64,000 bases of DNA from a virus (IMGVR_UViG_3300037067_016086:1-64000), one strand, 5' to 3'; shown: positions 10,419 to 11,724, counted from the first letter of the stretch. A program made the numbers and translations. Notes: generated from the sequence alone by a model not told the origin.

Positions 10419-11724
10419 TGCCCATGCCTTGTGCATTGTTGTTGCACCCGTTGCTATCCATGCCTGGGCCCCTGGTTCTGCCATTGGCGTTGTCCATGCC
10501 ATCTTTGTTGGTTCCGCGAGGCAGTATGTCCATGCACGGGAAATTGTTTTCGCACCCCACGTTATCCATGCATCGGTGCTTTGTGTTGCCGCCATAGTTG
10601 TCCATGCCACGTACACTGTTTTCGCTGTGGCGATTGTCCATGCCTTGATCTCTGTTTTCGCCGCGACACTTGTCCATGCATGGAACTTTGTTTTTGCACC
10701 CCACGTTATTCATGCGCACCATGCTGATTCTGTCCGGCTGGTTATCCATGCGAAGGCAGTTGTTTTTGCCCGGCCAGTTGTCCATGACCGCCGTCTTGAG
10801 TCTGCTACCGCTTTTGTCCATGCACCACCACTTGTTTTTGCCGTGGGTTCTGTCCATGCCGGTGGGGTTGGGTTTGCCTTCCAAGTTTTCCATGCCTCTG
10901 GGGTAGACTCTGCCGGTTGTGTTGTCCATGCGCCACATGCTATTTCAGCTCCGACAACTGTTCATGCCGACGCAGTTGATCCTGTTGGCACCGTTGTCCA
11001 TGCTCTTTTCGATGATTCCGCCGAAACCCATTTCCATGCGAACTACGCTGTCTCTGATTGATCCACTGTCCACGCATCATCGGCTGTCCCTGCTTGCCAA
11101 ATTGTCCATGTCAGGACCATTGTTTTTGATATGGACGCTGTCCATGCTTGTCGACCTGTTTTTGCCTTGATCACTGTCCATGCACTAGTTCCTGAACCTG
11201 CCCGTCACCTTGTCCGTGCCGACACCGTTGATTCTGCTCCAACTTCTATTCGCGCCTGGTCATTTGGTTCTGCCACCCGCGATTGTCCATGTTGGCCTTG
11301 CTGATTCTGCGAGTTCAATTGTCCACGCACCTGTTCCTGATCCTGCCCACGATCCTGTCCATGCCCAGTTCGTTGGTTTTGCGCGCCACACTATTCATGT
11401 ACCATCCATTGGTTCTGCCTACGGCGTTGCTCATGCCCCCCGCGTTGTTTTTGCCCACTCTGCTGTCCATGCACGATTCACTGTTTTTGCGTCCGCTAAT
11501 GTTCATGCCAGCAGTTCTTCCGATGCGACCTTCACTGTCCATGCGCCCGGACTTGATCTTGCACCACCAGCTATCCACGATCCCTGAATTTGAAATGCCT
11601 TGACGGTTGTCCATGCCTATCGCTCTGGAGTTGCAGCGGCCACTGTTCATGCCCGACCTCTTGGTTTTGTCTCCCCACCTGTCCATGCGCCCCGCGTTGA
11701 CTTTGCGGACGACGTTATCCAACC
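10419..11724 (-). repeat. TIGR-type dual-repeat guide RNA array: 36 units of 36 nt
   Basis: The conserved 9-mer (plus strand TGTCCATGC; minus strand GCATGGACA) recurs every 36 nt from 10419 to 11716, 37 copies, with one 37-nt unit at 11247-11283. A second, more variable 9-mer (minus strand GCAAAAACA / GCAGAACCA / GCAGAATCA) sits midway. The repeats are separated by variable 9-nt spacers, and the array is directly downstream of a Nop-domain gene. Confidence 0.93.

Follow-up and report, generated by a model that had tools for sequence, protein, structure and literature searches.

A probable phage-borne TIGR-Tas locus with a nuclease-less Tas protein and an unusual recognition motif in its dual-repeat array

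First described as recently as 2025, TIGR-Tas systems are under development as compact, PAM-free DNA-targeting tools. The repeats of the characterised dual-repeat arrays read UG-CGAG-CCA and UG-AAAC-CCA for TaTasR and ParTasR (Faure et al. 2025, PMC12045711), A-AG-CGAG-CCA and A-AG-ACAA-CCA with eight free spacer bases for SpTasH, and AG-UGUA-CCN and AG-UAAC-CCN for FpTasA (both PMC12045711). Stem-loop arrays use CCA, CGA, CUA, CAA or CUU as box C and UG or CG as box D (10.64898/2026.09.09.750476, 10.64898/2026.08.11.744272). Box motifs can thus diverge between loci, while they co-vary between the edge and the loop repeat, as was stated by Faure et al. (PMC12045711). The guanine of box D and the cytosine of box C pair in the solved structures and, in the available parts of the published accounts, in every characterised guide; according to the same parts, the tigRNAs, bridge RNAs and box C/D RNAs characterised so far all have this G:C closing pair. 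On the protein side, hairpin B of PlTasA touches box D, and the catalytic loop of SpTasH contains Tyr289 and His296 (PMC13421893). Such a Tyr/His processing loop is present in dual-repeat Tas proteins but absent from stem-loop Tas proteins.

Here we analyse a stretch of viral DNA of 64,000 nucleotides (IMGVR_UViG_3300037067_016086:1-64000), which is called the window throughout. We consider it likely that the window contains a phage-borne TIGR-Tas locus of the dual-repeat, nuclease-less (TasA-like) kind, organised as a one-transcript guide system with an unusual recognition motif.

The array, the Tas protein and their neighbourhood

The features of the locus are collected in Table 1. An initial annotation of this DNA had proposed array repeats at this place with a kept 36-nt geometry. 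Both claims are borne out by 36 units phased at 36 nt on the minus strand, which are followed by a closing edge repeat, and by counts against shuffled sequence: with at most one mismatch, GCATGGACA occurs 51 times in the 64-kb window versus 17.9 +/- 3.8 times in shuffles, and none of 100 shuffles reached 51. Thirty-two of the 51 occurrences lie inside the array, phased at 36 nt. Tandem Repeats Finder reported only the part from 10522 to 10715, with periods of 36 and 72.

Table 1. Features of the TIGR-Tas locus in the window; positions are counted from the first nucleotide.
Feature	Position	Strand	Remarks
Promoter-like site TTGACA, 16 nt, TAAGAT	13147..13174	-	upstream of tas; 10/12 consensus positions
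tas (nuclease-less, TasA-like, two zinc-ribbon-like insertions)	11715..13148	-	longest ORF 477 aa
TIGR dual-repeat array	10419..11724	-	36 units (one of 37 nt) + terminal edge repeat
Perfect 10-bp hairpin, 4-nt loop	10385..10408		between array end and ribosome-binding site of the next minus-strand ORF
Downstream 293-aa ORF	9491..10372	-	outside the conserved system; no family match

Read on the minus strand, each unit has an edge repeat and, beyond a variable stretch, an A-rich loop repeat (GCAAAAACA and variants) with another variable stretch after it. The 9-nt consensus is GCAUGGACA for the edge and GCRNNNHCA for the loop. All variants quoted in the initial annotation, GCATGGATA, GCATGAACA and GCGTGGACA for the edge and GCAAAAACA, GCGAAAACA, GCAGAACCA and GCAGAATCA for the loop, were found in the array. 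The 37 edge repeats have G1 in 32, C2 in 36, A3 in 32, U4 in 35, G5 in 37, G6 in 30, A7 in 35, C8 in 27 (U in 8) and A9 in 37 cases, while the 36 loop repeats have G1 in 31, C2 in 36, R3 in 35, C8 in 32 and A9 in 35. Position 10 is a purine in 33/37 edge and 35/36 loop repeats and a C in none of either. Therefore the conserved block comprises 10 nt and the variable block 8 nt, rather than 9 and 9, and the consensus extends to GCAUGGACAR (edge) and GCRNNNHCAR (loop), with 8 variable nt after either of them. The alternation of edge and loop repeats of 10 nt in a 36-nt unit gives the array the dual-repeat layout. Edge and loop have G1, C2, R3 and C8, A9, R10 in common, and such sharing of the motif, read from the repeats, is as expected for recognition by a symmetric dimer. 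Position 7 of the loop is unconstrained (A 14, C 10, U 11, G 1), which is why eight loop repeats end with the canonical CCA.

The only unit of 37 nt (11292-11256) has a first spacer of 10 instead of 9 bases after the 9-nt edge repeat and displaces the phase of the remaining array by one. The first edge repeat (11724-11716) is degenerate and overlaps the stop codon of tas, so that the 477-aa ORF ends inside it. We rejected the idea of a protein-coding 12-residue repeat, because there is no frame in which an ORF runs through the array, and codon periodicity is lacking in the 10+8 pattern of conservation. The purine bias of the spacers on the gene strand (0.57) was uninformative, since flanking coding DNA and canonical arrays have the same value. 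Two units (10571-10536 and 10715-10680) have the same first spacer (CGTGGGGT after the purine) and different second spacers.

The adjacent minus-strand ORF is a Tas protein with a Tas-type Nop domain, a type characterised by a coiled coil and a C-terminal RNA-binding domain. When its AlphaFold2 model (pLDDT 72.8) was searched with Foldseek, the ten best matches were cryo-EM chains of TasH and TasR (probability 0.99-1.00, best E 5e-4, TM to the target up to 0.70), and the next one was the IS621 recombinase. A single-sequence search against the PDB gave a weak match only (E 0.024); the profile of the family, built from an alignment of 12 homologues, matched TasR 9mty with E 9.2e-9 and TasH with E 3.8e-5. 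Among the PHROGs the protein matches phrog_4285 (E 3.7e-13), with the C-terminal part labelled 'transposase'. A Pfam search of the ORF gave no family and thus no HNH or RuvC match, and because of this lack of a nuclease domain we regard the protein as TasA-like.

The N-terminus (residues 1-66) is rich in Lys and disordered. The Nop region contains two insertions that are about 80 residues long and have CxxC...H...C patterns; their similarity to zinc fingers is weak. At the C-terminus the residues P456, Y457, L462, G463, H466 and H467 (PY457...LG..H466 H467) are invariant. Y457 aligns with Y289 of SpTasH, while the position aligned to H296 is occupied by Ile, Val or Lys and the conserved His pair follows two residues beyond it. 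This alignment suggests that a C-terminal Tyr/His processing loop is present, for which a catalytic role may be considered. We had also considered the LG-x-x-HH tail as a co-variant of the odd edge repeat, and rejected this since many canonical relatives share the tail.

Translation of tas probably starts at Met33 (13052), which is preceded by GGAG, giving a protein of 445 aa and a probable leader of about 90 nt ahead of it. The -10 hexamer of the promoter-like site shares bases with the first ATG of the 477-aa ORF. In L001, one of the related loci described below (these carry L numbers), the region upstream of Met33 is still conserved, the tblastn match beginning at residue 4.

By consensus match, the sigma-70-like site is the only promoter-like site on either strand between 9400 and 13600. 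At the other end of the array, the hairpin region folds with -22.3 kcal/mol (10370-10430, minus strand; z -3.9), and the hairpin recurs in L044 (2516-2540) with one G:C to U:A change affecting both arms and one mismatch. As it has no U-tract, we infer a terminator role with caution; it may be a terminator, a processing stop or a stabiliser. The 293-aa ORF downstream has no match in Pfam, PHROG, PADLOC or the PDB and no homologue in any related locus fetched. An ORF of 117 aa upstream of tas (13171-13524) recurs in L001 with 68% identity and is partly conserved in L044; hence the upstream neighbour travels with the system and the downstream one does not.

Transcribed strand and register of the repeats

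We fetched 116 related loci by means of the shared C-terminal motif, 96 of which are distinct. Runs of at least five [A/T]G-N4-C[C/T][A/G] repeats at 18-nt spacing were taken as canonical. They occur on the tas strand in 55 of the 96 distinct loci and on the other strand in none, so the array lies on the strand of tas in 55/55 related loci with canonical repeats.

The initial annotation had read the array on the gene strand and had remarked that the plus-strand repeats begin with TG. The remark is accurate: the plus strand has UG at the start of 28/37 edge and 32/36 loop repeats, as the complement of C8 and A9 on the minus strand, and the same applies to L046. An array transcribed from the plus strand would have the repeats UGUCCAUGC and UGUUUUUGC, with a canonical UG box D and an unusual UGC in place of CCA. 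Apart from the 55 relatives, several observations make this very improbable. The plus strand has no promoter-like site within 9400-13600, and only 46 nt, filled by the hairpin, separate the start of the neighbouring gene from the array. On the minus strand, the array has its start within the tas stop codon; after it come the hairpin and the ribosome-binding site of the next gene. Its loop repeat is A-rich on the gene strand only, matching published loops, and would be U-rich on the plus strand, unlike every published loop. A plus-strand repeat would have NGC at its 3' end, unlike any known box C. Moreover, the opposite strand starts with CUA in L047 and with UAA or UAG in L048; a UG start there is limited to the window type and L046, so that two of five clade lineages are without it. 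Because of these two lineages, the UG start of the plus strand is, judged from the repeats, coincidental. In L048 array, tas and a strong terminator follow each other on one strand.

Taken together, the 55 relatives, the promoter-like site, the array start at the tas stop codon, the A-richness of the loop and the starts in L047 and L048 favour the gene strand, and transcription of the array from the minus strand is well supported, though not proven. An argument from G-U versus A-C oppositions was dropped as primary evidence, because covariation tests gave nothing beyond controls. It also points in opposite directions, as L047 favours the gene strand with G1-U8 and U4-G7 while the many A1-C8 cases of L048 point the other way. 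Directly upstream of the array in L047 (L047:2366-2397), the gene strand has TTGACA, 18 nt and TAGTGT, and a hairpin lies between array and tas. The promoter scan did not call this site (3/6 in the -10 hexamer), and it is suggestive only.

On the gene strand, the motifs of the window differ from the published ones compared, which in the parts of the sources available have UG, AG or CG as box D and CCA, CCN, CGA, CUA, CAA or CUU as box C. Our survey of distant relatives adds that CUA, UUA and CCG also occur as box C. All these compared and surveyed motifs, with the same limit on the sources, have G at the second position of box D and C (rarely U) at the first position of box C. No frame of the window repeats restores both canonical motifs, which speaks against a canonical member of the TIGR-Tas family but not against a TIGR-like mode of action. 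The frame of the initial annotation gives GC as box D and ACA as box C; a frame of 1+2+4+3+8 gives CA and CAR. The latter is most likely the homologous one, one base off from the earlier reading, with the repeat laid out as G-CA-UGGA-CAR + 8 in parallel to A-AG-CGAG-CCA + 8 of SpTIGR. The 3' motif would then most likely be a C-N-purine box C (CAR) and not ACA, and the 5' motif CA after a conserved G. The claim of a non-canonical motif therefore stands with regard to the published motifs compared, while its GC(A)...ACA frame is likely shifted by one base, as L045 and the SpTIGR layout indicate.

In this frame the main departure is probably the loss of the box D guanine. With CA replacing AG or UG as box D, the G:C closing pair becomes mostly an A-C juxtaposition: the second base of box D and the first of box C are A and C in 25/36 edge and 27/35 loop repeats. 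For the clade described below, the SpTIGR layout gives CA (or CU) as box D and CAR (or UAG, YUA) as box C. Expressed without a frame, both repeats of the clade follow the pattern R1, C2, five bases, Y8, N9, R10 and eight variable bases, for comparison with the published (A/U/C)G ... C-N-A.

Covariation does not establish any base pair. Edge positions 4 and 7 are U:A or U-G in 93-100% of the repeats of six arrays (5-53% in the loop), and 96% complementary in 100 aligned edge repeats from four lineages, but shuffled and slid controls score as high in both cases because U4 is nearly invariant and pairs with any neighbouring purine. The pair 1:8 in the same 100 repeats covaries no better than shuffles. 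Therefore the register rests on the conservation pattern and on the short array of the family member L045 with five units, whose edges, read as 1+2+4+3, have UG or CG together with CUA in 4/6 cases. In L047 and L048 the edge has U at position 3 where the loop has A, which is a misfit with a strictly symmetric box D at positions 2-3.

A rare Tas clade with its own motif type

Among the related loci surveyed, GC-type runs were found only in the full-length family loci L001, L044, L046, L047 and L048 (Table 2). An exhaustive profile search covered 1.84 billion cluster representatives (50% identity). Six clusters have E <= 1e-118; after these there is a drop to 1e-30, within a wider Tas-like family of about 1,785 clusters. 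About 100 distant relatives, found by the shared C-terminal motif, have 36-nt arrays. No homologue was found in 50,697 GenBank phage records, and there is neither an Rfam family nor a PADLOC model. The available text of the supplement of Faure et al. contains no peptide motif, contig name or repeat of the clade, which is uninformative either way. From the loci compared, the motif type is specific to a rare Tas clade bearing the two zinc-ribbon-like insertions. The earlier suggestion of a divergent subtype thus agrees with a motif confined to a discrete clade with insertions of its own.

Table 2. Tas identity and repeat consensus of the clade arrays.
Locus	Tas identity to window	Edge repeat	Loop repeat
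Window, L001, L044	87-88% (L001, L044)	GCAUGGACAR	GCRNNNHCAR
L046	41%	GCAUGGACAA	GCAACACCAA
L047	39%	GCUUGGGUAG	GCAAAGAYAG
L048	34%	RCUUGAANUA	RCRAAAYCUA
L045 (5 units only)	43%	mostly G-UG-UGAA-CUA	ACAAAACCAA

All clade arrays have 10 conserved and 8 variable nt. With near-canonical edges and loops of the clade type (ACAAAACCAA), L045 may stand between the canonical and the GC-type motifs. This relative is AT-rich (42% GC) and has a terminator-like hairpin with a T-run after tas, then the 5-unit array (L045:5170-5475).

The array of L001, whose Tas is 88% identical to that of the window, has 45 units. One complete unit is common to the window (11255-11220) and L001:6180-6215, with the spacers AAGTTGGA and CGGTGTCG; the remaining likeness between window and L001 spacers consists of chance-level 8-mers only. 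Since just one complete unit is shared with relatives of 87-88% Tas identity, the guide content turns over quickly. This bears on the question whether the array is a decaying remnant from which functional guides are no longer made. Only 16 of the 37 edge repeats are perfect and one unit has a 1-nt insertion, as decay would predict. However, C2, G5 and A9 are conserved in 97-100% of the 37 repeats, the tas ORF is intact with all family-invariant residues kept, and published functional arrays have similar repeat variation. In addition, the relatives with 87-88% identical Tas have equally long arrays in which almost all spacers differ, a pattern in line with turnover under selection rather than decay. 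We therefore regard a remnant as extremely unlikely.

Granted an active array, two readings of its motif are considered. In the first, which we hold to be less likely than not, the clade would have an RNA code of its own, made up of the 5' motif R-C-(R) and the 3' motif Y-N-R without a G:C closing pair, so that its guides and proteins would be orthogonal to canonical ones. The structural reason could be an insertion near the site of box D. The first insertion sits between the helix-hairpin-helix (FPDVYDAG) and the KPSTFARYAG motif and may correspond by position to hairpin B of PlTasA, a hint only, since the hhalign alignment of the PlTasA segment with the family was not significant; for the same reason the co-evolved pocket that the initial annotation had brought up is kept here as a hypothesis.

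Conversely, the motif could be tolerated drift, with Nop reading mainly shape, backbone and the retained C-A step, so that canonical and GC-type guides would cross-load; the strand and the TIGR identity would be as given above. The divergence of box motifs between loci (Faure et al., PMC12045711) is in line with this, as are the variety of box C in published systems (CCA, CCN, CUA, CAA, CGA, CUU) and in the relatives surveyed (CUA, UUA, CCG), the canonical CCA at the end of eight window loops and the occurrence of the LGxxHH tail outside the clade. Furthermore, the Trp of SpTasH that stacks on the adenine of box C (W249) is aligned to the DPW conserved in the clade, and this fits the retained A9 and R10. 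On the other hand, four lineages keep G1 and C2 in edge and loop alike, with C2 invariant in 100/100 aligned edge repeats. The guanine of every box D in the published material available is missing, and the motif type is found in exactly that protein clade which has its own insertions. We consider drift, too, to be less likely than not.

Proposed function and comparison with known systems

In the mechanism that we propose, the promoter upstream of tas would give rise to a single minus-strand transcript that runs through tas into the array and ends before the strong hairpin. By analogy with SpTasH, a Tas dimer would bind each 36-nt unit via the motifs common to edge and loop, and the conserved C-terminal Tyr/His loop would cut the precursor within the edge repeat. 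The product might be a 36-nt guide of roughly 5'-GACAR-N8-GCRNNNHCAR-N8-GCAUG-3', the two short spacers of which would pair with opposite strands of a DNA target. Because a nuclease domain is lacking, the protein would most likely act by RNA-guided binding or repression and not by cleavage; other TasA proteins act as repressors (preprint 10.64898/2026.09.09.750476).

We looked for targets in the phage's own genome of 89.8 kb, using the geometry of the oligo targ_C_WT in Table S3 of Faure et al. (PMC12045711), where one target strand carries spacer A and then spacer B in reverse complement. With gaps of 0-2 bp, there were 0 matches at <=2 mismatches. The opposite geometry gave 1 match, while mis-paired control spacers gave 0.2-0.4 per 36; thus nothing above chance was found in the own genome.

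The motif lies outside the range of the published motifs compared, of which the sources available cover a part; that box motifs diverge in general had already been stated by Faure et al. If a clade keeps the 36-nt geometry without the G:C pair, the plasticity of the Nop-RNA interface would be greater than expected from the structures. The clade would also be a counter-example to the conserved Nop domain with which dual-repeat systems have been described (10.64898/2026.09.09.750476). The current array finder, according to the accessible part of its description, is anchored on pre-set box C/D motif pairs and found arrays at 6,685/20,096 tas loci; GC-type arrays might escape such motif-anchored annotation. 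Furthermore, an orthogonal protein-guide pair for multiplexing could be obtained from this clade. If the guides cross-load, the motif would be just one more divergent logo.

Among the known systems, SpTIGR-TasH from the Salicola phage CGphi29 (PMC12045711; PDB 9w03, 9vzx) is the best structural match to the window Tas. Both systems are phage-borne, and in both the dual-repeat array comes immediately after tas and on its strand, with a 36-nt unit composed of twice 10 conserved and 8 variable nt, an A-rich loop and a C-terminal Tyr/His loop. They differ in their repeats, which are A-AG-CGAG-CCA and A-AG-ACAA-CCA in SpTIGR versus G-CA-UGGA-CAR and G-CR-NNNH-CAR in the window. While SpTasH has an N-terminal HNH nuclease, the window Tas has none and carries the two zinc-ribbon-like insertions of about 80 residues in its Nop region. 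In addition, the catalytic His of SpTasH directly follows LG, whereas the His pair of the window comes two residues later, a spacing common in canonical relatives.

FpTIGR-TasA from Flavonifractor plautii (Faure et al. 2025) is likewise nuclease-less with a dual-repeat 36-nt array, and we count its relaxed last box C position (CCN) and its C-terminus PYEVAKLGHKPHH as further likeness to the window. It is unlike the window in its AG box D, its CC in box C and its 9-nt spacers; moreover, FpTasA lacks the zinc-ribbon insertions and comprises about 300 aa versus 445-477 in the window. The arrays of TaTasR and ParTasR (UG...CCA logo) have in common with the window the 36-nt dual-repeat unit with the same flanking motifs in both repeats and an A-rich, tetraloop-like loop repeat; their edge has an extra pair in its 4-nt gap, to which positions 4 and 7 of the window edge may correspond. 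However, their spacers have 9 nt, the proteins possess an N-terminal RuvC nuclease, and the cryo-EM structure has the G:C closing pair at positions whose equivalents in the window are mostly A and C.

The stem-loop arrays of PlTasA, PateTasR and CsTasR offer a parallel, as their box motifs vary, protein insertions co-vary with guide features, and both CAA as box C and C at the first position of box D occur. Their guides are hairpin units of variable length, associated with proteins without the Tyr/His loop, while the window combines a uniform 36-nt dual-repeat array with a putative Tyr/His loop.
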